Shown in pieces: positions 13,700 through 39,271 of a stretch of DNA of 64,000 nt. This DNA is from Roseibacillus sp. (lineage in GTDB: Bacteria; Verrucomicrobiota; Verrucomicrobiia; Verrucomicrobiales; Akkermansiaceae): assembly GCA_051251855.1 (NCBI GenBank), contig JBPOGI010000002.1, forward strand, positions 448,001 through 512,000, read 5' to 3'. Under the pieces are notes generated by a model. It was not told the origin of the DNA and did no database searches. It saw only the letters and a program-made list of their open reading frames with translations. The position numbers were made by a program, and so were the translations under genes. Numbering within the stretch: the stretch's first letter is position 1; every line of letters begins with the position of its first letter.

Positions 13700-14428
13700 A
13701 TGACTAGATTCAGAAGCCTAGGACAGGAATTATTGGAGAAAGAAGACGGAGAAGTTTCAGCTGCGATCTTGCCTTTCGACCAAGTGAATGTAGCTACCGC
13801 CTTCGAGACGGCCACCTTTGGGATGGGATGATTCTGGGGGCCGGATTCCGAGTTCGGAAGCCTTCCTGGAGTTTTACGCACACGCGCTGGTTATTGTGGT
13901 GGCGAGAAAGTGAAGCCGACCTATCGCTCGATGGGGGATCATACCGAAGCAGTTTCGATTGATTACGATCCGATGGTGATGAGCTATCTTGATTTACTGA
14001 AAGAGTTTTGGGCGGGGCATCGCTGTGATTCGCTGAATCGGAGCACGCAATATATGAATGCCGTTTTCTATCGTGATGAATCTCAGAAGCAGGCGGCGTT
14101 GGAGTCGTTGGATCGGGAGGCGCATCGTTTGGGGTTAGCAAGCGCGCGGGTGGCGACCAAGGTGGTGCCGGTGAATCACTTTACCTATGCTGAAGGGTAT
14201 CATCAGAAGTATGCGCTCTCGAGGACGAGCGAGTCGCGGCTTTTTCTGGAGAGTGTTTATTCGACAGCCAAAGAGTTGGCCGACTCCACGGTAGCAACGC
14301 GGCTCAATGCTTACTTGGGAAGTGGGATGGAAAGAGACTGGGGGGCTTTCGCGACTGAGTTGCCTGAGTATGGGTTGCCCGAGGCGCTGGAGAAGAGGCT
14401 TTGTGAGCTGGCAAAAGAGCGGGTGTAA
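13700..14428 (+). CDS. msrA: Peptide-methionine (S)-S-oxide reductase MsrA, predicted selenoprotein (in-frame TGA 13829-13831)
   Basis: ORFs 13646..13831 and 13910..14428 are in one frame: ATFGMG-TGA-FWGPDSEFGSLPGVLRTRAGYCGG..PTY...DHTEAV..DYDP...FTYAEGYHQKY. TGA occupies the catalytic Cys of GCFWG. Confidence 0.9.
13832..13871 (+). promoter_or_regulatory. Bacterial SECIS-like hairpin of msrA
   Basis: TTCCG-AGTT-CGGAA upper stem with GU-containing loop 19 nt after the TGA; lower GGC/GCC and TTCTGGG/CCTGGAG pairing. Confidence 0.7.
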
Positions 14429-14552
14429 GGTGTTTCAGGGAGAGTTTCAATTCTTCATCAATGGTGTTCTTTATTGTTTGCTTATCGCAGCAAGGAAGGA
14501 ATAAGAAGGATTAGTGCCCATCAATTTAGTCTCTTTATTTCAATCGTCTTAC

Positions 14553-16424
14553 ATGCTTCTCTGCGGGGCCTTTGTGCTGGGGCTTTCGTGTTCTTCCGTC
14601 TTCGGTGAAGCGCGGGTTTTTCACAGCAGCGATGGTGTCGAGTTGGAGGCCGTTTTCAAGGGGACAGACGGCAAGGCTGCGACGCTGGAGCGCGCGTCGG
14701 ACGGCAAGGTCTTCGCGGTTCCGCTTGAGCGTCTGAGTAAAGAGGATCAGCGATGGATCCGAGATTGGGAAGAACGGCGGCGACCCGATGAGCCTATGCC
14801 GGCCGTGGTGCATCCCCTTGGCTGGACGCAGCTGACCATTCATGATCTTTCCCGGCAAGCGACCTGTAGCTTCGTCGGTGTCCAGAGCGCGAATGCGTCG
14901 AGTTATGCCTATACTGCAAATTTGTATCTGCCCAAGGGAGTTTGGCTTAGTCTGGGAGGTGACCAGATGAAGGGTGCTTCTGATTCCTTAGTTCTTTTTG
15001 ACGGAGAGAGAGATTGGTTCGTAGAGCAAGGAGAACGGGAACTCCGGCTCAAGACTGCGCCGGAGGGAGTGGCGCGAGTGGTGGGAATCAGTTGGGGAAA
15101 TCGAACGACCCCCGAGCAAAAGGAGCGAGCGGTGGAGGCGATTGAGCTGGGAGCTTGCGTGGAAATCTACAGTGAGGATCTTCCTGAAATGGTGGCCCAG
15201 AAATTGAAGCCGATCGCGATGGTTTTAAATCAACGATCAGAAGCGGTTGATTGGAAATCTCTCCCGAAAAGTCTGCGCGCCTTGCACCTGAATGCTAGCA
15301 ATCCTGAGGTGAGTCTCGCGGGCATCGAGCAGCTTGAAAATCTGGAGTATTTTAAATTCTGGGGTGGATCCCTCAAGGGCTTGCCCACGCTTTCCGAGTT
15401 GCCCGAATTGAGGTCTTTGGCAGTCGGCGGCATCTTGAGCTTGGAAGAAATTAAGAGCTTGGGGACGTTGACGGGTCTGCGGCATCTGGCGGTGAGCGAA
15501 CGAACAAAAGAGAATTTGCCTGCCGATACTTTCAATTGTTTGGGTCAACTCAAGGAGCTGGAAACGTTTTCGATGGGTTCCCACTGGATTCACGATAAAT
15601 ACATCAGTCCCGATAGAACTCTAGAAAATAGTCCTAGGCTGACCACTTTCGAATTTAATACCAAATTTTTTGGGGAGGGGCGGTTCTTAGAACATCTTCC
15701 AAAACTCTTTTCGGTGGAATTGCTCAATCAGCGCATAGACGCCCCTTTCATTGAGAGGTTGATGCAGGAGGGGCACTTCAAGCATTTGCAGAAGTTGGAA
15801 ACGAGGAGCTCGTTACCCGTTGGCGATTTACCGCAACTACAAGAACTAACAATAGCCTGCCTTCCTGGAGCTGATTTTCGCTCGGTGGGAAGTCTTCCTC
15901 AACTGCGAACGCTTCAGCTGCAATTTGCGACCACAGAGCATCTTGCATATTTGTTAGAGCATCCCAATCTCAGTGGGGTGGAGTCACTCTCTCTTCTGGT
16001 TGCGGAGGAGACTCAGCTTGAGGCCTTGGCGGCAATGCCAAATTTAAGAAGGTTACAGCTTGAGCTGGGAAAGAGGGAAAGCCTCGACCTCTCATTATTC
16101 AAAGGGTTGAAAGCGGTCGAGTTGTTCCGGGGAAAGCAACTCAAGAAGTTGACCCTTCCTCCACAGCTGCAAGAATTGGGGGTAAGAAATATGGATGCCC
16201 TTGATTTTTCCGAGGCTACGCCTTTGCCTTATCTGCGTCGTCTAACGGCGGATCGCTGTCAGGGGCTTCTTTCGCTAGACGGATTAGGTGCTTGCCCCGA
16301 ACTTACTGATTTGAGACTGCAATACTGCCCCGAGCTTCGTTCGACTTCGGGGCTGGATGAGGTGAAGAGTTTGGAGCGTTGTTCTATTAGGGGGTGTGGA
16401 GAGGTTGCGAATCAGAACCGCTAA
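14553..16424 (+). CDS. Secreted SHD1-domain leucine-rich-repeat protein
   Basis: Signal peptide; RVFHSSDGVELEAVF...VPLERLSKEDQRWI SHD1 motif; LxxLxxLxL repeats to the C-terminus; start uncertain (14514 or 14553). Confidence 0.8.
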   Translation: MLLCGAFVLGLSCSSVFGEARVFHSSDGVELEAVFKGTDGKAATLERASDGKVFAVPLERLSKEDQRWIRDWEERRRPDEPMPAVVHPLGWTQLTIHDLSRQATCSFVGVQSANASSYAYTANLYLPKGVWLSLGGDQMKGASDSLVLFDGERDWFVEQGERELRLKTAPEGVARVVGISWGNRTTPEQKERAVEAIELGACVEIYSEDLPEMVAQKLKPIAMVLNQRSEAVDWKSLPKSLRALHLNASNPEVSLAGIEQLENLEYFKFWGGSLKGLPTLSELPELRSLAVGGILSLEEIKSLGTLTGLRHLAVSERTKENLPADTFNCLGQLKELETFSMGSHWIHDKYISPDRTLENSPRLTTFEFNTKFFGEGRFLEHLPKLFSVELLNQRIDAPFIERLMQEGHFKHLQKLETRSSLPVGDLPQLQELTIACLPGADFRSVGSLPQLRTLQLQFATTEHLAYLLEHPNLSGVESLSLLVAEETQLEALAAMPNLRRLQLELGKRESLDLSLFKGLKAVELFRGKQLKKLTLPPQLQELGVRNMDALDFSEATPLPYLRRLTADRCQGLLSLDGLGACPELTDLRLQYCPELRSTSGLDEVKSLERCSIRGCGEVANQNR

Positions 16425-16689
16425 ATAGGTTCGCCAACTGGCAAGATTCGCCTTCGGTTTATGAGGTTTTTAGGATGGTTAGAGAAGATTCAGGGAAACG
16501 GTTATGGAGAGTTGAGTTGTTGGAGGAACGGTTGTGAGAGTTATTGTTAAGTGGATCCTCTGTTGGGACAAAAGAACTTCCGCGAGGACTGCTTCCACGC
16601 TCACTGTGCGTAGGTCTATGCTGCCGCTTGCACTCTTTGGTGTGAGGTCTATTCTCTGAGGGAGAGATTGGAGCTCGCGACTATCCTTT

Positions 16690-17337
16690 ATGAAAGACAA
16701 CTCACAAGAACTTGCTAAGCCGGCTGTTTCTCCGGTAACGGTGCATCGACAGAGTTTTCAGACGGGGGTCTTTGAGTTCGTGCCTTTGCCCTTTGTGGAT
16801 GATTGGCTGATTGTTCGGGAGCGGCGTTTGTTGGTGGAGAAGATTTTGAAGGGAAGGGGTGTTTCTTTTGAGAAAGGGGTGCCCAAGTTGCTGGCGGATG
16901 GAGGCAAGAAGACACTCATGGGGAGGATGGGTGGTTTGGTAAAAGCGCTTGTTCTGAAGCCGCTGCGCAAGGTGTTGCGGACGTTTCTGTTTTGGCTCGC
17001 GATTCGGCGGGCGGTTCTCAATGTGATCGAGACCTACTTCCTCGCGCGTTTCGTCAATTTGGCAGAGGTTGATTCTGATTCCGGCCCTATCACGGCAGCT
17101 CAGGCGGCGGCTTGGGGAAAGTTGTTCATGCAAGTCGTTGCTAAGTCAGATCAGCGTTTTGCAAGAGAGGGGACTCGGCGGTTGTGGAAGCTGATGAAGC
17201 AGAAAAAGAAGGCTCAAAGTGAGAGGCTTTCTCGCGAAGAGGTGGAGGCTGAGTTGGAGAAAGAGGCGCCGGGGATTTTGGCGGACTTTGACCAGAGGGC
17301 ACGTGAGGGGCTGAAGGCTGTTTCACTTTTGGCGTGA
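16690..17337 (+). CDS. Hypothetical protein
   Basis: 215-aa ATG ORF with VPLPFVDDW motif; overlaps the 3' end of the convergent regulator. Confidence 0.65.
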   Translation: MKDNSQELAKPAVSPVTVHRQSFQTGVFEFVPLPFVDDWLIVRERRLLVEKILKGRGVSFEKGVPKLLADGGKKTLMGRMGGLVKALVLKPLRKVLRTFLFWLAIRRAVLNVIETYFLARFVNLAEVDSDSGPITAAQAAAWGKLFMQVVAKSDQRFAREGTRRLWKLMKQKKKAQSERLSREEVEAELEKEAPGILADFDQRAREGLKAVSLLA

Positions 17338-18414
17338 GGTGGATTCGCGCACGATGAGTTGGCCTTGAAGGGTGATGCGTTGGATGGGGGTGTCGGGATA
17401 CTTGATGCGGTGCATCATCAGTTCGGCGGCGACACGACCAATGTCGCGGCAGGGTTGTTGATAGGTGGTGAGGGGAACACTGAGGAGGGAGGCGTATTCG
17501 ACGTCATCGAATCCTGAGACTTTCACTTTCCCTGGAATGTCGGCTCCTCGGTCAATAAGGCCGCGCAGGATGGGGCCAGCGGTGACGTCGTTGGCGCAGA
17601 TGATACCGTCGGCTCCGCTTTCGAAGAGTTCGCTGGCCGCCTTTCCTGGTTCGTCGCTGGGGTCGATGACCGTGAGTAGGCTGCTCGCCTGCAAACCGTG
17701 TTGAGTGAGGGCTTCACGACAGCCCATACGGCGAAGCTGCACCGTGACTGCTGGGTTCTCGCGGGTGACGAAGACGAGGCGTTTGCATCCTTGGCTGAGC
17801 AAGTGGCTGGCGATGGTGTAGCCGGCTTCGATGTTGTCGATGCTGACGAGATCGTTATGAGTTTGGCGTGGCCAGCGGTGAATGTCGCGGTCGATGAGGA
17901 CCACTCGGATGTTCTCTTTGGTCAGTCTTTCGATCACTCCATCGTTGAACTCCGAAGGGCTGTCGAGGTGCTCGGTGGGAGCGAAAAAGACGCCGCGCAC
18001 CCGGGCTTCGATCAGTTGGTCGGCGAGCGAGTTGGTTCGCTTTTTGAGATCGGCGCCAAAGTCTAATTCGGAAGGAAGAATGACCCGCATGCCTCCCATT
18101 CCTGAGGTCTCGGCGATGGCGGCGGAGATGGGCTTGAAAATTTCGATTTCGGAAAGCTGTGGAATGAGCAGTCCCGCGAGAAGGGCGGACTTCCGCGGAG
18201 CAAGAACCTGGGTGCCGAACCCTGCCTTTCTCACCACCAGCTTCTCATCGCTTAAGAGCTTGAGCGCTCGCGCGATAGTGGGTCGGGAGGTTTGGTATTT
18301 TTTACACAATTCTGCCTCGGTGGGGAGGAAATCGCCGGGCGAAAAGCTCTGATCATGGATCTGATGCTGGATTTCTTTGTAGATTTGCAAATACCTTGGC
18401 TGAGCTTCGTTCAC
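17323..18414 (-). CDS. GntR-HTH / LacI-type sensor transcriptional regulator (AraR-like)
   Basis: LPTEAELCKKYQTSRPTIARAL wHTH followed by periplasmic-binding-like domain (DNIEAG, CAND, GFDD, PLTT). Confidence 0.9.
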   Translation of the reverse strand: MNEAQPRYLQIYKEIQHQIHDQSFSPGDFLPTEAELCKKYQTSRPTIARALKLLSDEKLVVRKAGFGTQVLAPRKSALLAGLLIPQLSEIEIFKPISAAIAETSGMGGMRVILPSELDFGADLKKRTNSLADQLIEARVRGVFFAPTEHLDSPSEFNDGVIERLTKENIRVVLIDRDIHRWPRQTHNDLVSIDNIEAGYTIASHLLSQGCKRLVFVTRENPAVTVQLRRMGCREALTQHGLQASSLLTVIDPSDEPGKAASELFESGADGIICANDVTAGPILRGLIDRGADIPGKVKVSGFDDVEYASLLSVPLTTYQQPCRDIGRVAAELMMHRIKYPDTPIQRITLQGQLIVRESTSRQK

Positions 18415-18453
18415 GGATGAAATGTAATTAAAATGAAAAGTTTTATCAAGGTG

Positions 18454-18477
18454 TTTGTAACGTCAATTGTTTACAAA
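18454..18477. promoter_or_regulatory. Palindromic candidate operator between regulator and sugar operon
   Basis: TTTGTAA-N10-TTACAAA in the divergent intergenic region. Confidence 0.5.
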
Positions 18478-18564
18478 TGATTCCTGCCTGAGTATCAATT
18501 CTGTGGCGAGCGGCGAATGGGTTGTTGAACCCGAAGTCAGCCGATAGCCGGAAAGTTGAACTAG

Positions 18565-19461
18565 ATGAGCAGAAATCATAAAATTGCGGGAATCGGAGAA
18601 ATTCTGTGGGACTTGTTTCCTGACGGCCGACGTCTTGGAGGGGCTCCGGTCAATTTTGCCGCGCACTGTCATCAGCTGGGTTGCGAAGCCTATCCGGTGA
18701 GTATGGTGGGACCTGACCTCGTGGGGCTGCGGACTCGGGACCGGCTTGCAGAGCTCAAGATGAGCGACCGCTTTATTCAGGAAAGCTCGGATCTCCCCAC
18801 GGGCCGAGTGTTGGTGACTGTTGATGGCGCGGGTAAGCCCACTTATACCATTCTTGAGAACGTGGCATGGGACGGTTTGGTCTTTTCTCCAGAGTTGGGT
18901 GAGCTGGCAGCGTCTTTGGATGCAGCTTGCTTCGGGGTTCTGGCGCAGCGTTCCCCGATAACGCGAAAGACAATTGGGCAGTTTCTCTCCGCCATGCCTC
19001 AGGAGTCGATCCGGATTTGCGATGTCAATTTGCGGGAGCCGTTTTTCTCGAAAGAAATCGTCGAAGGCTCATTGAAGCAGGCGAGTATTCTGAAGCTGAG
19101 CGACGAAGAGCTTCCCGTTCTCGCCGACTACTTTCAATTGGAAGGAAGCGTGGTCGAGCAACTCAAGGCGCTGCACCAACAGTTCGCTCTCACTCATGTC
19201 GCCTATACCCGCGGGGGTGAGGGGAGTCTGATTATTTCCGCTGATGAGGTGAACGAGTGCGCGGGGATTCCGGTCAAGCCCGTCGATACCGTGGGGGCAG
19301 GGGACTCTTTCACGGCAGCCCTTGCTTGCGGCCTCTTGAGGCAATGGCCGCTCGAGAGAGTGAACTCTTTTGCCAACCGGGTGGCCTCCTTTGTCTGCTC
19401 GCAGAAAGGCGCGACCCCGAATCTTCCCGCCGAACTCCTCGATGAGATGAACCAAGACTGA
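18565..19461 (+). CDS. PfkB-family carbohydrate kinase (fructokinase-like)
   Basis: GIGEILWD, GGAPVN, DVNLR, DTVGAGDSF motifs. Confidence 0.92.
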   Translation: MSRNHKIAGIGEILWDLFPDGRRLGGAPVNFAAHCHQLGCEAYPVSMVGPDLVGLRTRDRLAELKMSDRFIQESSDLPTGRVLVTVDGAGKPTYTILENVAWDGLVFSPELGELAASLDAACFGVLAQRSPITRKTIGQFLSAMPQESIRICDVNLREPFFSKEIVEGSLKQASILKLSDEELPVLADYFQLEGSVVEQLKALHQQFALTHVAYTRGGEGSLIISADEVNECAGIPVKPVDTVGAGDSFTAALACGLLRQWPLERVNSFANRVASFVCSQKGATPNLPAELLDEMNQD

Positions 19462-19512
19462 ACCTTTTTCCCAAGTAACAAAAACTAACCTAAGCAACCA
19501 AACGATAGAACA

Positions 19513-20457
19513 ATGAAAAAACACATATCCACCCTCCTAGCCGTCTTTGCCGCATTTGCGATGACCGCCTGTGATCGAAACAAAGATGGCGAAGGCCAGA
19601 TTAAGATCGGGATGACCGTTCAGGATCTGAGCAATCCCACCTGGTCCGGCTATTGCCAGACCATTCAAAAGAAGGCTGAAGCCAATGGCGCTAAGATGAA
19701 CTATGTGGCCTGCGAGAGCAATGTCTCCAAGCAGATTATGCAGATCGAGAACTTTGTTTCACGTGGTATGGACGTGATCATTGTTCATCCGGCTGACCCG
19801 GCGGGAATCGAATCCGCTTGTCGTGAGGCCATGGCCGCAGGGGTGAAAATCATCTCGTGGGATGATGATATCAAGAACGCCGACGTCCGCTGGTTGATTG
19901 ATAACAAGGCGCTGGGGTCTGAAGTGGGTAAAGAGGCTTCGGCCTTTATCAACGAAAAGCATGGCGGCGAGGCTGAAGTGGCGATTCTCAATTACCCGCA
20001 GCTTCCCGTCCTTTTGGCGCGAGGCAACGGAATTCGCGAGGCGATTACCGAACTGGCGCCGAACGCGAAAATCGTCGCCGAGACGAGCGCCATCAATCCT
20101 CAAGAGGGTATCAGCAAGATGGAAACGATTTTTCAATCCAACCCCAATGTGAAGGTCATTTGCTGCATCGGCGGCGGTGGTTCGGTTGGCGCTAACGAAG
20201 CAGCCAAGGCGGCTGGCAAATTGGGTGACGACTTCGGAATCTTCGCGGTCGACGCCACTGAACCTGAGCTGGCGGCCATTAAGAATAACGAGGGAGTTCG
20301 CATGAGCGTGATTGTGACGGGAACCAATGACGATGTTGCCAATGAGGTTTACGGCTTTGTTGAGAAGCTCGCTGCAGGCGAAGAGTTGCCTGCCAAAATC
20401 TACCGCGATGTCATCCCTGTCACCGCTGAAAACGTGGACCAATATTTCCAAAAGTAG
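19513..20457 (+). CDS. Sugar ABC transporter substrate-binding lipoprotein (RbsB-like)
   Basis: Lipobox MTAC; QDLSNPTW; periplasmic binding protein type I features. Confidence 0.9.
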   Translation: MKKHISTLLAVFAAFAMTACDRNKDGEGQIKIGMTVQDLSNPTWSGYCQTIQKKAEANGAKMNYVACESNVSKQIMQIENFVSRGMDVIIVHPADPAGIESACREAMAAGVKIISWDDDIKNADVRWLIDNKALGSEVGKEASAFINEKHGGEAEVAILNYPQLPVLLARGNGIREAITELAPNAKIVAETSAINPQEGISKMETIFQSNPNVKVICCIGGGGSVGANEAAKAAGKLGDDFGIFAVDATEPELAAIKNNEGVRMSVIVTGTNDDVANEVYGFVEKLAAGEELPAKIYRDVIPVTAENVDQYFQK

Positions 20458-20468
20458 AAACCAAGACG

Positions 20469-21944
20469 ATGTTCCTGCAACTGAAAAACATTACCAAGAG
20501 ATATCCCGGAGTTGTCGCTCTGGATGATGTCAGCCTCGATATTATTGAAGGAGAAGTTCATGCCTTGGTCGGTGAAAACGGGGCAGGAAAGTCGACTCTC
20601 ATTAAGACCTGCACTGGAGCGATTTCTCCCGACGAGGGTGTTATCGTGATTCAAGGCCAAGAGTTCACCTCCCTGACCCCCAAGCTCTCCGAGGGCGCGG
20701 GGGTGGGGGTCATCTATCAGGAATTCAACTTGGTGGATGAACTCTCGGTTGCGGAGAATATTTTCCTTGGGCGTGCCCCTCGCAAGGGGCTGGTCATTGA
20801 CCGAAAGAAAATGGAGTCCGAGGCGGCCCAGATTTTTCAGCAGTTTGACATCAAGATCGACCCAGCGGAGTTGGTCGGAAACCTCACCGTGGGCTTTCAG
20901 CAGTTGGTCGAGATTGCGAAGGCTATCTCTCAGAAGGCGAAGATGCTCATCATGGACGAACCCTCGGCACCTTTGACTCAAACGGAAGCGAAAGCGCTAC
21001 ATCTCGTGGTGGAAAAGCTGCGGGATTCGGGCGTGACCATTGTCTACATCTCGCACCGCATGGATGAAATTTTCCGGCTCTCGGATCGCATCACGGTCCT
21101 GAGAGACGGGCAAAAAGTGGAAACGGTGAAGACCGCCGAAACCAACCTCGACGAATTGGTGAAGCTGATGGTGGGGCGTGAGTTGAAGGAGACTTATCCC
21201 GAGCGAAATCACCAGGTCTCCGAGGAGGTGCTTTTGGAGGTGGAGCATGTCTCTGGAACGATTGTCAAAGATGTGAGCCTCAACATCAAAAAGGGGGAAG
21301 TCCTCGGTTTGGCCGGTCTTATTGGTTCGGGACGCACCGAGTTGGCCGAGATTCTCTTCGGCTACAAGAAGAAGTCCGCTGGTCGGGTGACCTTGCAGGG
21401 GCGGGAGGTTGACTCCAAGACTCCCAAGCAAGCCATCGCAGAAGGCATCGCCCTTGTGCCGGAGGACCGGAAGAAATTGGGCGCATTGTTAGAATTCGAT
21501 ATCAAGGAGAACATCAGTGTCTCTGTCCTCGAGCGCATCTCGAAATTCTTTACTGTGAATCGAGGCACCGAAAAGGATGTCGCAGAAGGCTACCGCAAGG
21601 CGATGCGCATTAAGACCCCGAATTTGGAGGAGAAAATCAAGAACCTGAGCGGTGGAAATCAGCAGAAGGTCATCATCGCCAAGTGGCTGGCAACCGAGCC
21701 TACCTTGGTCATTTTCGACGAACCCACCCGAGGCATCGACGTTGGGGCCAAGTCTGAGATTTACGAGTTGGTCAATAGCCTCGTCGAGTCCGGTAAGTCG
21801 GTCCTGATGATTTCCTCCGAGATGGAAGAGGTCATGGGAATGTCCGACCGCATCGTGGTCCTCCACGAAGGGCGCGTAACGGGCGAACTGGCTCGTAAAG
21901 ACTTTTCACAAGAAGCCATCATGGGCTTCGCCTCACATAACTAA
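20469..21944 (+). CDS. Sugar ABC transporter ATP-binding protein (RbsA-like, two NBDs)
   Basis: GENGAGKST, DEPSA, LSGGNQQK, DEPTRGIDVGAK. Confidence 0.95.
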   Translation: MFLQLKNITKRYPGVVALDDVSLDIIEGEVHALVGENGAGKSTLIKTCTGAISPDEGVIVIQGQEFTSLTPKLSEGAGVGVIYQEFNLVDELSVAENIFLGRAPRKGLVIDRKKMESEAAQIFQQFDIKIDPAELVGNLTVGFQQLVEIAKAISQKAKMLIMDEPSAPLTQTEAKALHLVVEKLRDSGVTIVYISHRMDEIFRLSDRITVLRDGQKVETVKTAETNLDELVKLMVGRELKETYPERNHQVSEEVLLEVEHVSGTIVKDVSLNIKKGEVLGLAGLIGSGRTELAEILFGYKKKSAGRVTLQGREVDSKTPKQAIAEGIALVPEDRKKLGALLEFDIKENISVSVLERISKFFTVNRGTEKDVAEGYRKAMRIKTPNLEEKIKNLSGGNQQKVIIAKWLATEPTLVIFDEPTRGIDVGAKSEIYELVNSLVESGKSVLMISSEMEEVMGMSDRIVVLHEGRVTGELARKDFSQEAIMGFASHN

Positions 21945-21966
21945 CCTCAACACAGCAACAAAAACT

Positions 21967-30690: not shown

Positions 30691-31002
30691 GGAGCAAGAC
30701 GCACAGACTACGGCTCTGCGGGGACGATGGAAATGAGATTGCGCTCAGAAGAGCAGATGACGACTGGGAGCGTTGAGGGACGAAGCGGTCGAAAGGGGGG
30801 AGGGGACAATTCGTTCGAGCTCGCTTGCTGGGTAATCATTTGCCTGTCCAACTACGACGACGGGATGAAAATGTTCCGATGCGCGGACTGACCCGAATGG
30901 CTGCTCGTCCAACGGTTTGCGGTTCTTCAAGCTGCGCTTTGCCGCAGTCGATTCGAGGTGACCTGTTTCACACCGTTTTTCAACGTAGTTTCGGACCAGC
31001 GA

Positions 31003-31096
31003 GACGCAACACCTTTGGTGTTGAAGAAACGATGTGGGGAGATCTCAGGGTATGCTACGCCAATCCTGGGCTGAGAAACGGAACACCTTTGGTGTA
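31003..31096. repeat. Composite REP-like palindromic element
   Basis: AACACC-TTT-GGTGT at 31008 and 31082 flanking a CTCAGGGT...ATCCTGGG hairpin. Confidence 0.6.
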
Positions 31097-31187
31097 TTTG
31101 AGGTGGGAGTCCGATGGACTTCAGAGAGAATGGACAAGTCTCGATAATCAGTGGCTGACTGAACGGGAGATGGGCATAGTCGCTTCG

Positions 31188-31222
31188 TGATTCGGCTGAT
31201 TCGGCTGATTCGGCTGATTCGG
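31188..31222 (+). repeat. 9-bp tandem repeat (TGATTCGGC) x ~4
   Basis: Three full units and one 8-nt unit just upstream of rlmF. Confidence 0.9.
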
Positions 31223-31256
31223 AAGCGAAGAAGTGGAAGAGGAAGTGAGAAGAACT

Positions 31257-32162
31257 GTGAAAACGCAAGAATTGACCGGAAGTGGTGATGGGGGCGGGGC
31301 TTTGCATCCGCGGAATCCTCATCGCGGGCGCTACCGCTTTGATGGGCTGTGTGAGGCTCTTCCGAGCTTGCAGGGGTTCTTGAGGTTGAATCCGAGGGGA
31401 GAGCAGACGATTGACTTTGCGGATCCGGCAGCGGTGGTGGCTTTGAATCAGGCGCTTTTGTCCCAGTTCTATGGCGTGAAGCATTGGATGATTCCGAAGG
31501 GGTATCTTTGCCCGCCGATTCCGGGGCGGGCGGATTACATCCATTATCTGGCCGACCTCATCGGCGAGAAAGATGGAGTGACGGTGTTGGATATTGGGAC
31601 GGGGGCGAACTGCGTCTACCCGATCATTGGGAGTCAGGCTTATGGCTGGAAATTCGTTGGCACAGACATCGATCCAGTGTCGGTGAAGACTGCGCGCACG
31701 ATTGTGGAGGTGAATCCGTGTCTGAGAAAGAAGGTGAAAATCGTTCTACAGAAGTCCTCGCAATCTTATTTTGAAGGAGTGATTCGAGAGGGCGACTGCT
31801 ATGAACTCACGATGTGCAATCCTCCCTTCCACTCCTCGATGGAGGATGCGCAGGCGGGAAGCCGGAGGAAGGTTCGCAATCTTCAGAAGAGTCAATCAGC
31901 GAAGGGGAAGCTGGCCTTGAACTTTGGAGGTCAAGGGGGAGAGCTCTGGTGTCCGGGAGGCGAGCTGGCTTTTTTGAAGGGGATGATTCGAGAGAGTCAG
32001 AAGTATTCCCAGCAGGTGGGTTGGTTCACCAGTCTGGTCTCCAAAGCGGATACATTGAAGCCTCTTCAGAAATTGTTAGAACGCCACTCCGCGAAAGAGG
32101 TGAGAGTGGTATCGATGAGCCAGGGCCAGAAGCAAAGTCGTTTTATTGCTTGGCGATTCTGA
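31257..32162 (+). CDS. rlmF: 23S rRNA (adenine1618-N6)-methyltransferase
   Basis: LHPRNPHRGRY, YLCPPIPGRADYIH, LDIGTGANCVYP, CNPPFH, NFGGQ..ELWCPGGE; start 31233 or 31257. Confidence 0.93.
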   Translation: MKTQELTGSGDGGGALHPRNPHRGRYRFDGLCEALPSLQGFLRLNPRGEQTIDFADPAAVVALNQALLSQFYGVKHWMIPKGYLCPPIPGRADYIHYLADLIGEKDGVTVLDIGTGANCVYPIIGSQAYGWKFVGTDIDPVSVKTARTIVEVNPCLRKKVKIVLQKSSQSYFEGVIREGDCYELTMCNPPFHSSMEDAQAGSRRKVRNLQKSQSAKGKLALNFGGQGGELWCPGGELAFLKGMIRESQKYSQQVGWFTSLVSKADTLKPLQKLLERHSAKEVRVVSMSQGQKQSRFIAWRF

Positions 32163-32212
32163 GGTGAGCTGAATGTTTGTGCTTCTGCCTGATTTCCGCT
32201 AATAAATCGGAA

Positions 32213-33496
32213 ATGCATAATTCCGAACATACGGTCTCGCGCCGCAATGCCATTAAGAGTCTGGCCGCGATGGCAACGGTCTCCTTTACCCCTCGTCACA
32301 TTCTTGCAGCGCCGACGGCGCCGAGCAATCAGTTGACCCGAGCCATTATTGGCTGCGGAGGGATTAGCAAGGCCCATCTCGGAATGCCCGGTAAGTTGCT
32401 CGCGCTCTGCGATGTGGACTCCAATCACTTAGCTGACCGAATGAAGCAGGTTCAGGATGGCGGTAACAGGGATGTAAAAGGCTATCATGATTTTCGGGAG
32501 ATCATTGCTCGCGATGACATCGACATCATTCATGTTGCCACGCCACCGCATTGGCACGCCGAGATGGCTATCGAAGCAGCCAAGGCTGGCAAAGCGATTT
32601 GGGGTGAAAAGCCGATGAGCCGAACTATTGGGGAAGGGATTGCGATGAAGAAGGCCATCGCCGACGCGGGCGTCGCCTTTCGGGTCAATACTTGGTTCCG
32701 CTTCCAGAGAAACTTCTACGGTATGGGCACCTCTGCCCGCCGGGTGCGCAAGGCGGTGATGGGGGGTCTGTTAGGTGATGGTCCCTACAAGGTGACTCTC
32801 AGTGGCGTGACTGGCTTTGATTGGAAATTCCAATGGTCGGGTCGGACTGACCTCACCGAGAAAAAAATTCCAGCGCACTTCGATTATGATTTCTGGCTGG
32901 GACCGGCTCCTCACAAGCCCTATCACCCTCACCGTACTCACAGTACTTTCCGCGGTTATTGGGACTATGATGGCGGTGGTTTGGGCGACATGGGCCAGCA
33001 CTATTTGGATCCGGTTCAATACATCTTGGGCAAGGATGATGAGCTCCCAATCTCAGTGGAAATTGATGCCGATAAGCAAGACGACGATGCCGTCGGTAGC
33101 TGGCGTCGTATTACTTTCACCTATGCCGATGGCACCCAAATCGTTCTCGATGGAGAGAACAAGGACAAGGAGGCAGCCTTTATAGAAGGGCCCGAGGGGA
33201 AAATCTTTAAGGACTTTGAATCGGATATCACGGGCTTTGCTGAGAAGGTTGATGCATTGCCCGAACCGCCGGACCAAGTGACGGATTTTCATGTAGCTAT
33301 CAAGGAGAAGAAGAAGTTCGCGCTCAATGAAGAGAACGGCTTCAACTCTTGCTGCCTGGTGAACCTGGGTAAGATAGCCCACCGCGTTAATGGCAACTTG
33401 GAGTTCGATCCCAAGGCCATGAGAATCACGAACAATGAGGAGGCCCAAGCGCTCATTCATCAGGCCGCGCGTGAAGAGTGGAAACTGAAGGGGTAG
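32213..33496 (+). CDS. Tat-exported Gfo/Idh/MocA oxidoreductase
   Basis: SRRNAIK Tat signal, IIGCGG, ATPPHWH, EKP, DMGQHYLD. Confidence 0.9.
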   Translation: MHNSEHTVSRRNAIKSLAAMATVSFTPRHILAAPTAPSNQLTRAIIGCGGISKAHLGMPGKLLALCDVDSNHLADRMKQVQDGGNRDVKGYHDFREIIARDDIDIIHVATPPHWHAEMAIEAAKAGKAIWGEKPMSRTIGEGIAMKKAIADAGVAFRVNTWFRFQRNFYGMGTSARRVRKAVMGGLLGDGPYKVTLSGVTGFDWKFQWSGRTDLTEKKIPAHFDYDFWLGPAPHKPYHPHRTHSTFRGYWDYDGGGLGDMGQHYLDPVQYILGKDDELPISVEIDADKQDDDAVGSWRRITFTYADGTQIVLDGENKDKEAAFIEGPEGKIFKDFESDITGFAEKVDALPEPPDQVTDFHVAIKEKKKFALNEENGFNSCCLVNLGKIAHRVNGNLEFDPKAMRITNNEEAQALIHQAAREEWKLKG

Positions 33497-33664
33497 CTCG
33501 TCCTGTAGTTTTTACAAGGCTCTGGCCCACGGTGGTCTGGTCTGAGAAGGGCCCCAGCGGTTGCGGTAAAAGGCTGGGAGTTGCGCGGAGGGAGAGTCGC
33601 AGAGGAAATGGGTTGAAATCGAGATTGCGAATTTGAGGAGTTATTCGGGCAGCAACGATTTGCC

Positions 33665-35857
33665 TTACTCGAGGGGTATTCCGACAAGGTCTGCTTGGAA
33701 GCGGTAGAAGATTTTAGGAGTGGCGGGGGATGGGCTGATGTTGTTGTCGAAGATGACGATGCTGGTCCCCGCGTTGATAAAGGTGTCGACTCCGGGAGCG
33801 ATGAAGTCGGGCCCGTCGTCAGGGTTGGCAGAGCGGAAGATTTCGACCCAGACTTCGAGGTTGGTTGAGCGCTCGATGATTGAGATTGCTTCCCCAGCGG
33901 CTTCGAAGTTGTAGCCGAATTCGAGGGTGGGGTGGTCGTTGTTGGCGAATTCGAATTGGAGATTTCGAAAGTGATCAGGGTCGGCAACTGCGGGGTCGGT
34001 GCCGAGGGTGAACTCAATGCCGAAGGGGCTGCCGTCATTGTCCAAGTCGGTGAGCCAGATGGAGGGGTAGTCCACGTCGCTAGGATTATTCCAGTTCGGG
34101 GCTTCAGTGGCTCCGATGTCCGGGGTGGAGGTGCCGTCATTGTCTCCGTCGAGCGAGCGAGCAAAGCCACGCTGGTCAGTTGCATTGTTAGGGGTGTTAT
34201 CCGCCACATCAATGGCAGGGGAGCCGGGGAGTGGGATCATGGTCTGGGTGGAGCCGCCATAGTCGCCGAGGGGGGAGAGGTTTGGGTTTGCTAAAATAAG
34301 CCCGGGCGTGCCAGTTGTGATTGAGTCTTGGCCCGAGAGACTGGAGAGGATGCTGTTTCCTGTAATGGAGGCCGCAGATCCACTCCCCAATTGGCTTAGG
34401 TCGACCCAACCCAGTCCAGTGTTTTCGGCCAGGATGGAATGATTCAAAGTCACGAGCGCAAGGCCCCCATTGGAGAGGCTGGAAATGCCGCCGCCAGTCG
34501 AAGTGGCCGAATTTTCAGCAATGGTGCAGGCATCCAAATTGAGGGTGACGCCGCCATTGCTGCCCAGAATGTAAATCCCGCCGCCAAAAGTTGAGGAGTT
34601 TTTGGAAAGGGTGCAAGAGTCGAGGTTGATAGTCGCATCTCCATCGTCGCTGCCGTTGATGTAGATGCCACCCGCGCGAGATTCGGAGTGGTTCTTTGAG
34701 AGCGTGCAGGAATTGAGGTTGAGGGAAGCGTTTCCTCCATTGGGGCTGTCAATAAAGATCCCCCCTCCGGTAAAGTTGGCCCTGTTCCCCGAGAGGGTGC
34801 AGGAGTCGAGGCTAATGGAAGAGTTAGCGAGAGGTCCGCCAGAGTAGATTGCCCCTCCATGGTTGGAAGAGTTGTCAGAGAGAACACAAGCGTTCACCTC
34901 GAAACTTGCAGGGCTGCCGGGTTCTGAGCCTCCGCCGTTGTTGTAGATTCCGCCTCCGCTGGATTCTGCAAAGTTGCTCGAGAGAAAACAGTCATTGAGG
35001 ACGATGTTCGAACTCCGATCGTTGAAATCCAGGGTGTAGATTCCTCCCCCGCGCAGAGCATTATTGGAGGTGAGGATGCACGAGTCCAGAGTGAGGCTGG
35101 CGTTGGCATTTCTGATGGCACCCCCATTGTCTGCGGAATTGTCGGAAAGGGTGCAGGACCTCAGGTGAAAGGTCGCGTTGCCGGTAGTAGAGCCCTGGTT
35201 ACTAATGCCGCCTCCCGAGTGGAAAAAGTCTCCAAGGAATGAATTTTCAGACAGGACACACGATTGTAGATTGGCGGTAGAGTTACCGTTCGAAAAGCTG
35301 AGGTTATAAATGCCGCCACCATCGACCCGTGCAAAATTTTCGGAAATTGCGCAGTCATTCAAACTGAGGGAGGCAATGCCATCAATGCCAGAACCTTGGT
35401 TACAAATGCCTCCGCCGCTGCCCCCAGTGGAATTGCTTGATATCGTGCAATGACTCAGGCTGAGAGTTGCATTTTCATTAAAGATGGCGCCACCGTTGTC
35501 CTCGTCCCCGGGCGACAAGAAAACTGTGTTTCCACCTGTGAAAGTGAGGTGGGAGATTGAGGCGTTGGCTCCTTCTTCAATCTTTAGAACTCGCGAATTC
35601 CCTCCCGCATCGAGTGTGATCCCGAGACTGTTAGCAGTGATTTCGATCTCAACACCGGCGGGGACGGTGAGCTGGCTTTCAAGGTCAATGGTTCCTCCGT
35701 CGAGAGTGGCGTCAAAGGTGATTTCAGTGGGTGCGGCTATGGTGGCAGATGCCAGAGCTTCTCGTAAAGTGCCGGCCCCATCATCGGCCAGGGAACTGAC
35801 GATAACTTGAGAATGAAGAATTGAGGTTGAGAACGCGATGAGAAGCAAGGTCTTCAT
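33665..35857 (-). CDS. Secreted GGAI/GGGI-repeat beta-helix surface protein (choice-of-anchor Q-like)
   Basis: Signal peptide; GTLREAL; repeated N.A..GGGIY; LSPLGDYGGSTQTMIPLPGSPAID..DQRG...PDIGATE. Confidence 0.85.
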   Translation of the reverse strand: MKTLLLIAFSTSILHSQVIVSSLADDGAGTLREALASATIAAPTEITFDATLDGGTIDLESQLTVPAGVEIEITANSLGITLDAGGNSRVLKIEEGANASISHLTFTGGNTVFLSPGDEDNGGAIFNENATLSLSHCTISSNSTGGSGGGICNQGSGIDGIASLSLNDCAISENFARVDGGGIYNLSFSNGNSTANLQSCVLSENSFLGDFFHSGGGISNQGSTTGNATFHLRSCTLSDNSADNGGAIRNANASLTLDSCILTSNNALRGGGIYTLDFNDRSSNIVLNDCFLSSNFAESSGGGIYNNGGGSEPGSPASFEVNACVLSDNSSNHGGAIYSGGPLANSSISLDSCTLSGNRANFTGGGIFIDSPNGGNASLNLNSCTLSKNHSESRAGGIYINGSDDGDATINLDSCTLSKNSSTFGGGIYILGSNGGVTLNLDACTIAENSATSTGGGISSLSNGGLALVTLNHSILAENTGLGWVDLSQLGSGSAASITGNSILSSLSGQDSITTGTPGLILANPNLSPLGDYGGSTQTMIPLPGSPAIDVADNTPNNATDQRGFARSLDGDNDGTSTPDIGATEAPNWNNPSDVDYPSIWLTDLDNDGSPFGIEFTLGTDPAVADPDHFRNLQFEFANNDHPTLEFGYNFEAAGEAISIIERSTNLEVWVEIFRSANPDDGPDFIAPGVDTFINAGTSIVIFDNNISPSPATPKIFYRFQADLVGIPLE

Positions 35858-35983
35858 GATTGAGAAAAGAAGGGTTTAATTATTGGAATATTCTATCTGA
35901 TTCATTGTTTCTGAACCTTAGGTTGGAGCGAGGAAAAAATGCCTCGAACCAAAACTTGAAAGTCTCGCTGCAGTTTCTTGCCC

Positions 35984-36018
35984 AAAAAAACGGCCTTCGG
36001 GGTCTCCCGAAAGCCGTT
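35984..36018 (-). terminator. Rho-independent terminator
   Basis: Minus strand AACGGCTTTCGGG-AGA-CCCCGAAGGCCG-TTTTTTT after the gene ending at 36043. Confidence 0.8.
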
Positions 36019-36042
36019 ACTAGTTGAAAATGCGGTTGCTAT

Positions 36043-36744
36043 CTACTCGGTCATTTCTTTGAGGAGAGCTTGGCTGTGGTCAGACAAGTTCTCGAGGGGA
36101 TAGGTGGTGTTCTTTCCATTGGCGAGTTGAAAGACGACGTTGAGATCATCAACGGAAACGACAGCGGCGGTGATGGTCTTGCCTTGGACGTTGGTCCAGG
36201 CGCGGCTCTCGATGAGGAGGCTGTTCTCTGAATTTTCAGAATACCTTTCATCGGTCTCTACCGCGGTAACTTCACCATGGAGGAGGGAAGGGTCGTCTTT
36301 AATCTGCTTTCTCACTTCGCGAACCAGCTTTTTGATAGAGTCGCTGGTGGCGTTGTCTGCACTGAATCCTGCGATGGGCTTGGTGCCGTCCGTATTGGTG
36401 ATGACCACAAAGGGAAGCAATTTTTTTGGTCCCTGAATGACCTTGGTAAGTTCGCTGGGGATGCGCCCGTGACGAGCTGTGTCTTTCGACTTTCTATCGA
36501 TAAGGACAAAGACACCTGTGGACTTAAATGCATCGAAAGTCGCCGAACCGACGACAAAGGATTTTCCTCATGCAAGATCCAGTCATGTATCGACGAAGAT
36601 GAGGGGCTTTTCTTGTTCCGTGGCGTAGGCTTTGGCTTCTTCGAGCTCGGCAAGAGGATAGGATCTACGCGGAATATCTAGTTCTGCAAAGGCAGAGATA
36701 GAAGCCGCGGCCGAGATGAATAGCAGTGTGGCTAATGATTTCAT
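36043..36744 (-). CDS. Secreted thioredoxin-like plus SHD1 protein with two in-frame TGA codons (candidate selenoprotein; pseudogene not excluded)
   Basis: One frame: MKSLATLLFISAAASISAFA...AKAYATEQEKPLIFVDT-TGA-LDLA-TGA-GKSFVVG...LLPFVVITNTDG...RAWTNVQGKTITAAV...YPLENLSDHSQ; no other stops. Confidence 0.75.
36539..36555 (-). promoter_or_regulatory. SECIS-like hairpin after second TGA
   Basis: GTCGTCG-GTT-CGGCGAC; loop starts with GU 19 nt after TGA2 and 34 nt after TGA1. Confidence 0.6.
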
Positions 36745-36847
36745 CTCTTTCGTTATGAAATCATTTTTGATTTCAGCAAGAAAAAAGAAGAGGCTGACTG
36801 AGGGGTGGTCAGTGAGTTGCAGCACCTAGAAAAAGGAAAGAGGAGGG

Positions 36848-37741
36848 TTAGCGGCTAAAGAAGGCGAGCATTTGCCAGCCGAGGGCGAAGATGAGGAGGT
36901 GGGCGCCGGCGAGGGCGAGTTGACCGTTGAGGGCGGGGGAGGGGCCGTTTTCTTTTACGGAGCTGACCACGCGGATGGCGGGGAAGGCGAGAATGAGGAC
37001 CGCGAAGAAGATGTCGGTGAGAGGAGGTTCTCCTAGTTGAACTTTTCGCGCGATGTAGAAGGAGACGATGGCGATAAGGTATTCGATGCGGAGAAGGTTG
37101 GAGGCTTTTTCGAAGCCCCACTGCACGGCGAGGGTGCGTTTGTTAGATTTTTCGTCTTCTTCGATATCGCGCAGGTTGTTGATGGTGATGAGGACGGCGG
37201 AGAGGCAGCCGACGGTGAGGCCGAGCCAGGCGGCTGCAGGGAGGAAGAGTCCGGTTTGCACGAAAACGGTTCCAGTGACCGCGATGAGGCCGAAGAAGAG
37301 GACGACAAAGATTTCGCCAAGGCCGAGATAGGCGAGGGGGAAGGGGCCGCCGGTGTAACCGTAGGCAAGGAAGAGACTGGGAATGCCGATGGCGAGAATG
37401 ACCCAGCCTCGGGCGGCAATGAGGGGCCAGGCGCAGAGGGCGGCAGCTACGAGAAAGAGAGTAGCAAGGAGGTAGACGTTCTTTCGCGAGAGGAGGCCGT
37501 TGGCGGTGACGCGGGTGGGCCCGAGGCGGTCTTCGGTGTCAGCTCCTTTGGCGTCGTCGATGGCGTCATTGAAGAAGTTGGTAGCGATTTGAATGCAGAT
37601 GGCGCTGCCAAGAGTGGCGAGAGCGAGGATCCAACTGAAGGAGTCGGTCGCTTGCCAAGCGAGGACACAACCGACCCAGACGGGAACGATAGCAGCAGGA
37701 AGGGTCTTGGGGCGGGCGGCGAGGAGAAGAGGCTTGAGCAT
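36848..37741 (-). CDS. menA: 1,4-dihydroxy-2-naphthoate octaprenyltransferase
   Basis: ARPKTL, NFFNDAIDDAKGAD, YTGGPFPLAYLGLGE, NNLRDIEED..KRTLAV; start moved to the ATG at 37741. Confidence 0.93.
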   Translation of the reverse strand: MLKPLLLAARPKTLPAAIVPVWVGCVLAWQATDSFSWILALATLGSAICIQIATNFFNDAIDDAKGADTEDRLGPTRVTANGLLSRKNVYLLATLFLVAAALCAWPLIAARGWVILAIGIPSLFLAYGYTGGPFPLAYLGLGEIFVVLFFGLIAVTGTVFVQTGLFLPAAAWLGLTVGCLSAVLITINNLRDIEEDEKSNKRTLAVQWGFEKASNLLRIEYLIAIVSFYIARKVQLGEPPLTDIFFAVLILAFPAIRVVSSVKENGPSPALNGQLALAGAHLLIFALGWQMLAFFSR

Positions 37742-37753
37742 GGGTGCGTGCAA

Positions 37754-37887
37754 GGAGCATGGACATTCTTGTCCATGAATCAATAGAATCACGCTGGAGC
37801 AGCGGCGTTTATTGCCGCCGAACCTTTTGGACGATTGCAGCGCTGGGCGGCAGTAAAGGCCGCCCCTCCGTAGGTTGTCCCTGCTCC
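37754..37887. repeat. REP doublet type A, interrupted by a type B element
   Basis: GGAGCATGGACATTCTTGTCCATG (37754-37777) and remnant AGGTTGTCCCTGCTCC (37872-37887); matches the intact copy at 42412-42476. Confidence 0.65.
37796..37870. repeat. REP doublet type B, copy 1
   Basis: GGAGCAGCGGCGTTTATTGCCGC...TTTTGGACGATTGCAG...GCGGCAGTAAAGGCCGCCCCTCCG. Confidence 0.85.
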
Positions 37888-37909
37888 ATTCCTGAGCGGC
37901 GAGGACTGA

Positions 37910-39271
37910 CTATTGAATGAGGCGGGTCTTGGGGTATTGGGCCTGCCAACCGAACCAGAAGGATTGGTGGGAGGGGTAACGAGGGAGGGTTTGGTCTGAT
38001 TTTTCGAGCTTTAGGGAGTTTTCGGTGAGGGTCCAGTTTTGACCGTCTTGGTCCTGCAACGTTTCCCAGCCATCCCATTTTTTGAAGACTTGGCCTGAAG
38101 TTTGATAGACTCTGCTCTCACCTTGAGGGGTTGTGATGATGACGATTTCGTCGCTTCCAACTTTGGTCGAGAAGAGAGGGGTCTTCTTGAGGAATTCGGT
38201 GTCGATGGCGACTGCGGAGTTGGGTTTATTGTTTCTCAGTGCAACAATTTCGCGCTTGTTGGGGAGTCTCTTATCAAGCTGAGGCACTTGGAACATCAGT
38301 CGGTCGGTTTCGAAGTAGCTTTCATAGGCCGCGCCTTCGTCGTAGTCTCTTTGGTGGCCAGTTTCTAAGGAAAGAGTAGTTGTTTTGGGGTGTCGCTTCT
38401 TCCAATCGCCCCAAGTGGTGGTGACCACGCTTCTTCGCTCGAGGGCGATGTCTTTGTCAACGAGGGGTCCGATAACGGGCTTGCCATGCAAGGTGCTCCA
38501 AAGTGAGGAGGTTGCTTTATCATACATGAGCTTGTTCGAACGATAGAGAAAGCCACTGGTCCCGAGTTGATGGAGGGTGCCTTTGTGTTGTGTTTCATAC
38601 AGAACCACAGTGCCACAAAGCGTTCAGTAGACGCCGGCGAGGGGGATGCCTTGGATGGTGTCGACGAACATCTCGTGCCAGGCGAGAATGCGCTTGGGGT
38701 AGGCGCGCGCTTCGCCTTCAACCTCAATGCCAAAGACGACGTCGCTGTCAGCTAGGTAGTCGGCGGAAGCTACTGAAATCATTCTGGGGTTTCGAAGGGG
38801 AGGAATTCCGTCTTGGAGAACTCCTCCCCAGACAACTTCGTCAAGCCGGATGATGGCTTTGTGTTTGTTGTCGAAGTAGTTTGCGAATTTTGGGTCTATC
38901 CGTTGATAGAGTTCTGATTTGAAAGAGGAATAGTTTGGTGAGGTTTGGTAGTCTTGAGACCAAAGCCAGTTTTTCCAGGCATCGCGGTCGTCGCCGAAGC
39001 TTTCGTCAGTTTGGGCGTGGAGGAAATCAAAGAGCTTTCGTGCGAGGAGTCGATCGCGGTTGAGACGCTGTGTTTCAAGAATCATGGGGACCTGAGCGGT
39101 ACTCCAACGGGCGGCGAGAGACTTTTTTGCCTTGTCCCACTGGTAGGGATCATCAGCGAGGCCTAGATAAAGGTCTGCGATGGGAGCGTTGGTGGTTTTG
39201 GCGTCTTGAGAGGGCGAGCAACTGACCAACAGCAGTAAGGTCGCGCTCACAAGAGGGGGAATCGGTCTCAT
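37910..39271 (-). CDS. DUF3179-domain lipoprotein, predicted selenoprotein (in-frame TGA 38624-38626)
   Basis: ORFs 38624..39271 and 37910..38608 join in frame: DGIPPL..P...ARAYP.RIL.WHE...GVY-TGA-TLCGT...GTSGFLYRSNKLMYD..T.SLW...FWFGW; lipobox LVSC. Confidence 0.88.
38581..38620 (-). promoter_or_regulatory. SECIS-like hairpin of the DUF3179 gene
   Basis: CTTTGTG/CACAAAG, TGTG/CACA and TTC/GAA stems; loop TGTAT begins 22 nt after the TGA. Confidence 0.65.

Follow-up and report, generated by a model that had tools for sequence, protein, structure and literature searches.

How are the in-frame TGA codons to be read that lie within three unrelated genes of a 64,000-nucleotide stretch of DNA from Roseibacillus sp. 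(the window; assembly GCA_051251855.1, contig JBPOGI010000002.1, positions 448001-512000 of contig C6 in our numbering)? The genes encode a predicted MsrA, a thioredoxin-fold protein (gene 2) and a DUF3179 lipoprotein, and an earlier note on this DNA had suggested that their UGAs are recoded in a context-dependent manner, as part of an unusually large and partly exported selenoproteome. Our analysis makes it very likely that these UGAs, like those of about 30 genes throughout the source genome (G000), direct the insertion of selenocysteine (Sec) by the standard mechanism, which relies on SelB and a selenocysteine insertion sequence (SECIS). Our confidence is lower for the complete decoding as Sec of the first of two UGAs in gene 2 (U54), and for every functional claim made below. 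The source genome comprises approximately 4.96 Mb, distributed over contigs that we designate by C-numbers, and is 95% complete. It was compared to a family sample of 151 Akkermansiaceae genomes, designated by G-numbers, and to a phylum sample of 200 other Verrucomicrobiota genomes.

Inspection of the three genes (Table 1) agrees with their initial description. The TGAs are found where the earlier note had placed them and are kept in relatives, each gene can be read through without meeting a TAA, a TAG or a frameshift, and the hairpins that follow carry a loop G, itself followed by U, at +21, +20 and +24, respectively. In the same window TGA serves as an ordinary stop codon in smc, gnd, rlmF and a sugar kinase gene, all of which are named here from sequence motifs. 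The predicted msrA product combines the PF01625 domain with Sec in the G[C/U]FW motif. Among its ten matched relatives in five genomes, the three close orthologs (63-76% identity) have TGA and the seven distant MsrAs have Cys; the AGUU loop is present in all three of the former and in none of the latter. The score against TIGR00401, 102.5 bits, is slightly below the cut-off of 108.1. Domain and position of Sec, at the catalytic Cys, are those given for Sec-MsrA in Table 1 of PMC13188914, and the protein would repair oxidised methionine. The DUF3179 lipoprotein shows the UxxC/T arrangement (UTLC) within PF11376, which is the domain and Sec position listed for DUF3179 selenoproteins in the same table, and would use UxxC as a redox pair. 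Its in-genome paralog and its homolog in G045 have Cys at this site, and the homolog in G070 has TGA. A related contig differs from the DUF3179 gene at 29 of 228 nucleotides. Among the 24 of these 29 differences that are listed none falls inside +16 to +34, and the terminal hairpin pair U15-A35 has been swapped to C-G.

The machinery for Sec insertion is present in G000. The earlier note would have given up its proposal had selB or a tRNA(UCA) been missing; both were found. The scores of selA (455.6 bits), selB (331.1 bits), selD (375.9 bits) and selU (336.5 bits) each exceed the respective (curated) cut-off. The tRNA-Sec gene selC (C1:329166) has the anticodon UCA, scores 63.9 bits against a cut-off of 47, matches RF01852 end to end (positions 1-91) and has the 3' end G73-CCA. 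G73 is a discriminator of the serylation type, and Cys tRNAs carry U73. ARAGORN and Rfam searches did not reveal a second UCA tRNA in G000, which at 95% completeness could still hold one. The four genes selA, selB, selC and selD are intact, the TGA of selD being the only internal stop, and they are dispersed, with selA and selC on C1 and selB and selD on C7. A gene for a VPGU thioredoxin-like selenoprotein is found directly 3' of selA (C1:1810543-1812785). As in the bacterial system described in PMC13188914, G000 has SelA, SelB, SelC and SelD as well as selU, a hairpin inside the open reading frame and an apical loop that starts with G(U). Unlike in that description, its genes are scattered, the loop G lies anywhere from +18 to +35 of the TGA, and in gene 2 a single hairpin follows two UGAs that are 15 nucleotides apart. 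SelB in complex with GTP and Sec-tRNA would bind the GU loop and then decode the UGA.

The enrichment of hairpins is specific for TGA. When all in-frame stop codons with coding-like flanks in the genome are considered, a GU loop at the start of a hairpin apex follows 21 of 53 TGAs, compared to 3 of 171 TAAs and 5 of 106 TAGs. Moreover, in alignments of paralogs from G000, an internal TGA is opposite Cys in 4 of 10 cases and an internal TAA or TAG in 0 of 11.

A genome-wide search, as called for in the earlier note and made up of a dicodon scan, a hairpin filter, a motif scan and a paralog search, resulted in 30 genes with 34 in-frame TGAs (Table 1). Judged by eye from the N-termini, about 22 of the products have signal-like or anchor sequences, seven do not and one is ambiguous. 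G000 thus appears to have a large, mostly unannotated selenoproteome, approximately two thirds of which is predicted to be secreted or membrane-anchored and which consists mostly of putative thioredoxin-fold redox proteins. The exported members would serve redox homeostasis in the cell envelope. This is in line with the many unannotated, partly exported selenoproteins anticipated from the window. The density that had been extrapolated is not, since there is one such gene per ~165 kb of the genome and one per ~9 kb in the cluster. In 5000 random placements of 28-33 genes in 4.96 Mb, three genes came to lie within 26 kb with a chance of 20-31%, and with ~30 genes in the genome the cluster in the window is therefore unremarkable. 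Comparative support was obtained for 19 of the 30 genes, including the three in the window. In the comparisons of miaB and of the FG-GAP, TPR-like, HMA-like, CxxxxxxxU, GETUNN, small-membrane and UxxU genes, neither TAA nor TAG occurs at the column of the TGA. A TBLASTN comparison with 2.0 Mb (~46%) of G147, restricted to coding frames, did not add any Sec gene to those of G000. In a noisier de novo scan of the same 2.0 Mb, hairpins follow 50 of 323 TGAs, 14 of 394 TAAs and 18 of 261 TAGs, and by eye we estimate that 16-17 likely Sec genes are present. Additional candidates in G147 (C2:686691, 1104863, 1614983 and 1815791) are the C-terminal thioredoxin domain of DsbD and MoeB, both of which have Cys in G000, and two UxxU proteins. 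The largest bacterial selenoproteomes listed in Table 2 of BSepDB (PMC13326102, section 11) have 46-63 genes and belong to Desulfobacterota, UBA8248 and Dehalococcoidia. G000 is like the BSepDB top ten in having dozens of genes, many of them thioredoxin-fold, and differs in that its 30 genes fall below the at least 46 found there.

Table 1. Window features and genes with in-frame TGA in G000. Positions are window coordinates for the first ten rows and contig coordinates thereafter.
Feature	Position	Strand	Basis or comparison
msrA, predicted Sec-MsrA, 242 aa, GUFW, cytoplasmic	13700..14428	+	PF01625 E 2.7e-35 across TGA
In-frame TGA (U44) of msrA, context GMG-U-FW	13829..13831	+	aligns to Cys of in-genome MsrA paralog
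msrA SECIS-like hairpin with AGUU loop and its G at +21	13846..13859	+	hairpin and ortholog loop comparison
Gene 2, signal peptide, thioredoxin-fold and SHD1-like domain, 233 aa, U54-x4-U59	36043..36744	-	AlphaFold2, Foldseek
First TGA (U54) of gene 2, Asp column of family motif; hairpin G at +35	36583..36585	-	alignment
Second TGA (U59) of gene 2, invariant Sec/Cys column	36568..36570	-	column C39, family alignment (TGA shown as C)
Sole SECIS-like hairpin of gene 2, GUCGUCG-GUU-CGGCGAC, G at +20 from second TGA	36539..36555	-	
DUF3179 lipoprotein, 453 aa, UxxC (U216)	37910..39271	-	PF11376 E 2.7e-74, full model across TGA
In-frame TGA (U216) of DUF3179 gene, context VY-U-TLC	38624..38626	-	
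DUF3179 SECIS-like hairpin with UGUAU loop and its G at +24	38589..38609	-	
Trx-SHD1	C7:209447		comparative support
UxxU protein	C6:141145		of 11 matches, 5 have two TGAs, 5 have one and 1 has none
Tandem HMA-like	C6:711764		all 16 matches have two TGAs
MiaB	C11:190578		comparative support
Three FG-GAP/UnbV genes	C6:415306-426860		comparative support
TPR-like	C1:1055323		12 matches in 45 genomes: TGA in 7 selA-positive, Cys in 5 selA-negative
YlbF	C1:1159557		2 TGA, 3 Cys in relatives
SHD1-GGGUGG	C11:155741		TGA in 2/8 matches
Small membrane protein	C6:322640		all 4 matches have two TGAs
GETUNN	C8:391943		TGA in 6/6
CxxxxxxxU protein	C1:1391801		TGA in 17/17
Prx			Cys paralog in genome
Two nucleoredoxin-like paralogs			TGA common to both
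SelD, FdhA, VPGU (NF041383 above cut-off), SelW, ArsC, deiodinase-like			family, motif and hairpin only
Three TlpA-like, one Trx, second Trx-SHD1			family, motif and hairpin only

Gene 2 has two in-frame TGAs, the first of which, 15 nucleotides upstream of the second, is not mentioned in the earlier note. Its family, defined by the motif TDPxxT[U/C]xxC, is represented by 55 matches in 49 of the 151 Akkermansiaceae genomes. TGA is found in 39 of the 55 matches, and 13 of the 16 without it come from genomes in which selA was not found; TAA or TAG occurs in a single match. The form with two TGAs, T-U-LxxA/G-U-G, is confined to G000, G045 and G131, whose proteins are 46-57% identical, and all three genes share the hairpin core GTCrGTTCGGCrAC. 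It lacks the usual resolving Cys at +3 (gene 2 has UGKS) and has instead a second Sec codon at -5, so that there is no redox pair of the CxxC type (i,i+3). The loss of the +3 Cys is what would be expected if U54 takes its place. Probably, a single hairpin serves both UGAs, and a U54-U59 diselenide replaces the UxxC pair of the family. The AlphaFold2 model (mean pLDDT, the predicted local distance difference test, of 84) retrieves thioredoxins as the top Foldseek matches (E 1e-4 to 1e-3), and also Sla1 homology domain 1 (SHD1). In the numbering of the model, a strand at 28-33 is followed by the Us at 34 and 39 and by a helix at 41-53, which places both between strand beta2 and helix alpha2, the site of the redox residue in the thioredoxin fold. 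Gene 2 would thus encode an exported thioredoxin-fold oxidoreductase in which UxxC has been remodelled to U-x4-U and which cycles through a diselenide.

Searches with the gene 2 protein returned no significant Pfam or NCBIfam family, no match to NF045694 or any other NCBIfam seleno model at E<=0.1, and only six homologs in protein databases, each of which spans 19-33% of the query. A metagenome scan for the double-TGA pattern produced one locus, which encodes almost the same protein as G045 and is therefore not independent evidence. A contig from another study covers both TGAs unchanged, with one difference elsewhere, and they are thus not assembly errors. Among the entries in Table 1 of PMC13188914, TsoB (NF045694, UxxxxU) has the same U-x4-U spacing, with two Sec in one active-site segment, and a Prx-like UxxU protein likewise combines double Sec with a thioredoxin fold. 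TsoB is a rhodanese/DsbD fusion, however, whereas gene 2 encodes a presumably exported protein of 233 residues with thioredoxin and SHD1 domains, has its extra Sec at an Asp position and does not match NF045694.

Outside the window, miaB extends the argument to a core enzyme of tRNA modification. The single miaB of G000 scores 448.9 bits against TIGR01574 (cut-off 355.3) and encodes the UPF0004, radical SAM and TRAM domains with all six cluster-ligand positions. Its U11 aligns with Cys27 of PDB 7MJV, presumably a cluster ligand, and the only other MiaB relative in the genome that spans the site, a RimO-like gene, has Cys. The spacing U11-x35-C47-x33-C81 fits the motif CX35-36CX32-33C, which according to PMC5352715 binds the auxiliary cluster of MiaB. 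The G000 protein thus shares domains and motif with MiaB of the Cys type and differs by TGA at the codon for the first ligand. This TGA is present in 56 of the 148 family genomes with a match, namely in 55 of 73 that are selA-positive and in 1 of 75 that are selA-negative, the exception being G135, which is 89% complete. A pattern search throughout GTDB identified 107 loci, of which 101 share the hairpin and are of the Akkermansiaceae type; most are named Akkermansiaceae, Roseibacillus, Rubritalea or Oceaniferula, and one is in a bin named Vicinamibacteria. The MiaB peptide of G000 agrees with records named Roseibacillus. The six others (L154, L167, L180, L181, L197 and L225), which are not from Akkermansiaceae and have no hairpin, comprise two decayed genes, one chance match and three singletons, and were excluded from the codon counts. 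Within the hairpin, the codons GAG and CAG are each found in 101 of 101 loci and GTT in 92, and the Gln codon adjacent to the TGA is CAG in 67 and CAA in 34. We read this pattern of codon use to mean that the miaB hairpin is under synonymous constraint.

Sec would then be the first ligand of the auxiliary [4Fe-4S] cluster of MiaB. An enzyme with such a selenium-ligated cluster would make ms2i6A37 (2-methylthio-N6-isopentenyladenosine at position 37), which according to PMC5699536 occurs on tRNAs that read UNN codons, and thereby a core tRNA modification, dependent on the supply of selenium. It would also offer a natural test of selenium ligation on an iron-sulfur cluster that bears a methylthio group. 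Three named isolates carry the miaB TGA, Rubritalea marina DSM 17716, R. tangerina KCTC 12907 and R. profundi SAORIC-165, which makes these claims accessible to bench testing.

In the FG-GAP/UnbV family, one TGA is present in 102 of 109 matches. These come from 21 of 60 genomes, all 21 of which are selA-positive, and in the 30 loci examined the hairpin loop, at about +18 to +19, is of the GU type. G000 has three genes of this family, and a relative may have as many as 13 matches. G040, G070, G060 and G065 have 11-13 matches each, nearly all with TGA, and their selenoproteomes may be larger than that of G000. Standard annotation splits such genes: 46 of 120 FG-GAP homologs among the matches listed are fragments that begin immediately behind the UGA, and a number of these are planctomycete. 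Four ASPIC-UnbV/FG-GAP selenoprotein candidates from planctomycetes P1 and P2 were reported in 2016 (PMC4807772, S9 Table). They have the same type of domain, are likewise split at the UGA and also have a residue other than Cys, in their case Gly, at the homologous position. The family is thus not new to print, even though the 2026 table does not list it.

Several observations weigh against this account or limit its reach. Genomes of one family are not independent, which makes the counts of co-occurrence with selA look stronger than they are. For 11 of the 30 genes the call was made from family, motif and hairpin only. Two candidates with good GU hairpins did not withstand comparison with orthologs and were dropped: C1:1073302-1074693 (-; GPG-TGA-QG) has TGA or Cys in none of four orthologs, and C9:356861 (+; PP-TGA-DC) has a single homolog in 30 genomes, with Ser. 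Their TGAs are either recent gains or due to chance, and the scan thus yields false positives. The hairpins of the window, taken in the order msrA, gene 2 and DUF3179, are not more stable than shuffled sequences (z -0.58, -1.02 and -0.12); the signal lies in position, GU loop and conservation, not in the folding energy of single hairpins. Finally, it had been claimed that the UGAs stand at Cys positions. This is correct for msrA, the DUF3179 gene and U59, which face Cys or UGA in homologs, but not for U54, which corresponds to UGA in two relatives and to the Asp of the motif in the wider family and from which the hairpin G, at +35, is near the far end of the range. Nor does it apply to the FG-GAP/UnbV site, at which 74 spanning full-length database homologs have Cys in no case (S 27, M 13, D 8, N 6, E 5, Q 5, A 3, L 1, gap 6). 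One could argue from these sites, and from the distance between hairpin and first gene 2 TGA, that most of the genes encode Sec, but that UGAs at non-Cys sites act mainly as stop codons or as a selenium-dependent read-through switch, the identity of the residue being of minor importance. We consider this unlikely. Termination at U54 would remove the entire thioredoxin domain, yet both halves of the gene, the TGAs and the hairpin are kept in G045 and G131, the form with two TGAs has no +3 Cys, and two FG-GAP paralogs within G000 do carry Cys at the site.

The remaining explanations concern all the UGAs. Since many of them face Cys in homologs, and since tRNA-Cys(UCA) variants reportedly occur in some bacteria (Mukai and colleagues), a variant tRNA(UCA) might insert Cys in a SECIS-dependent manner, as the earlier note also considered. 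However, the only UCA tRNA found is a tRNA-Sec by RF01852, with G73 instead of the U73 identity element for cysteinylation, neither selA nor selD is disrupted, and the forms with TGA follow the distribution of selA. With a single such tRNA alongside selA, selB, selD and selU, Sec is far likelier than Cys, and insertion of Cys is very improbable. Decay of pseudogenes or assembly errors would also produce internal TGAs, and G000 does contain a few decayed genes with TAA, TAG and TGA (C11:281670-281927 and C10:340011-340155). Against this, many genomes have TGA at one and the same column, where TAA or TAG is almost never seen, the conservation of TGA in other genera rules out decay for the window genes, and contigs of another study retain the codons; we give this explanation hardly any weight. 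Least credible of all is a genome-wide reassignment of UGA, for instance to Trp, as PMC13462651 reports for some Verrucomicrobiota. TGA is indeed the rarest stop codon of the 3738 predicted genes (TAA 1456, TAG 1452, TGA 830, at 54% GC), a rarity that possibly reflects avoidance tied to the use of Sec. Yet the 830 genes that end in TGA, among them smc, gnd, rlmF and hundreds of others, show that the genetic code has not been reassigned; just 53 TGAs are flanked by coding-like sequence on either side, the anticodon of tRNA-Trp is exclusively CCA, and read-through sites face Cys, not Trp. We thus retain recoding to Sec by SelB and SECIS hairpins as the explanation for the window genes.

Within the family sample selA is found in 74 of 151 genomes and 8 of 18 genera; among the 200 genomes drawn across the rest of the phylum, selB is found in 12. 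Genus g6 is represented by 16 genomes, of which G130 alone is selA-positive. G130 has FG-GAP genes with TGA and a miaB without an internal stop; it may have acquired the Sec trait separately. G000 has four matches to heme-copper oxidase subunit I, and the genera concerned are strictly aerobic. DNA of the window is present in seawater sequencing runs, from which it may originate, and a macroalgae study contains short near-identical contigs. According to section 10 of PMC13188914, the bacteria richest in selenoproteins are for the most part anaerobic, and such proteins are rarely retained by aerobes; approximately 30 predicted and mostly exported Sec proteins next to heme-copper oxidases run contrary to this rule.

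The SelB/SECIS mechanism and the MsrA and DUF3179 families are already known, the latter two being among the 119 Sec families in the 2026 Table 1 of PMC13188914. That table does not contain MiaB, TPR-like, YlbF, tandem HMA-like, FG-GAP/UnbV and other families found here, and the string "Verruco" does not occur in the main text of PMC13188914. Among the titles and abstracts listed in literature searches no report of a Sec-MiaB or of a verrucomicrobial selenoproteome was found, and the main texts of deep-Sep, SelCysML and BSepDB contain neither MiaB nor Verruco terms, although the BSepDB supplement may hold Akkermansiaceae entries for known families. As far as these searches reach, what is new is the size of the predicted selenoproteome in a verrucomicrobial lineage that respires oxygen, together with the U-x4-U Trx-SHD1 protein, Sec-MiaB and several small families. 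Sites opposite Asp or Ser escape methods that depend on Sec/Cys pairs. We see an even chance that the broader proposal holds, in which oxygen-respiring marine Akkermansiaceae form an unrecognised selenium-rich lineage that uses Sec at non-Cys sites, as in a diselenide thioredoxin with U-x4-U served by one hairpin and in the expanded FG-GAP/UnbV family, and as a ligand of the [4Fe-4S] cluster of MiaB.

Some minor observations complete the picture of the window and the genome. The smc stop (window 2741-2783, -; TGA at 2781-2783) is in frame with the next open reading frame of 737 codons and its hairpin has a z of -1.67; we assumed a normal stop. C12:85001 and other read-throughs in a wrong frame or in tails were rejected by eye. 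Gene 2 and the DUF3179 gene are separated by menA (window 36848-37792, -). A short repeat (window 37795-37875) between menA and the DUF3179 gene has many loose ends and a spike in depth, and is present a second time on this contig. A gene for a CxxCxxCC (PF03692) protein (window 39395-39844, +) is divergent from the DUF3179 gene. Ten tRNA genes are arrayed within 1.5 kb at C10:114076-115599, an arrangement of a type that is often borne by mobile elements. Leu tRNAs with A34 are unusual among bacteria; in G000, ARAGORN lists a tRNA-Leu(AAG) at C11:167618-167705, and its list does not include a tRNA-Leu(GAG).

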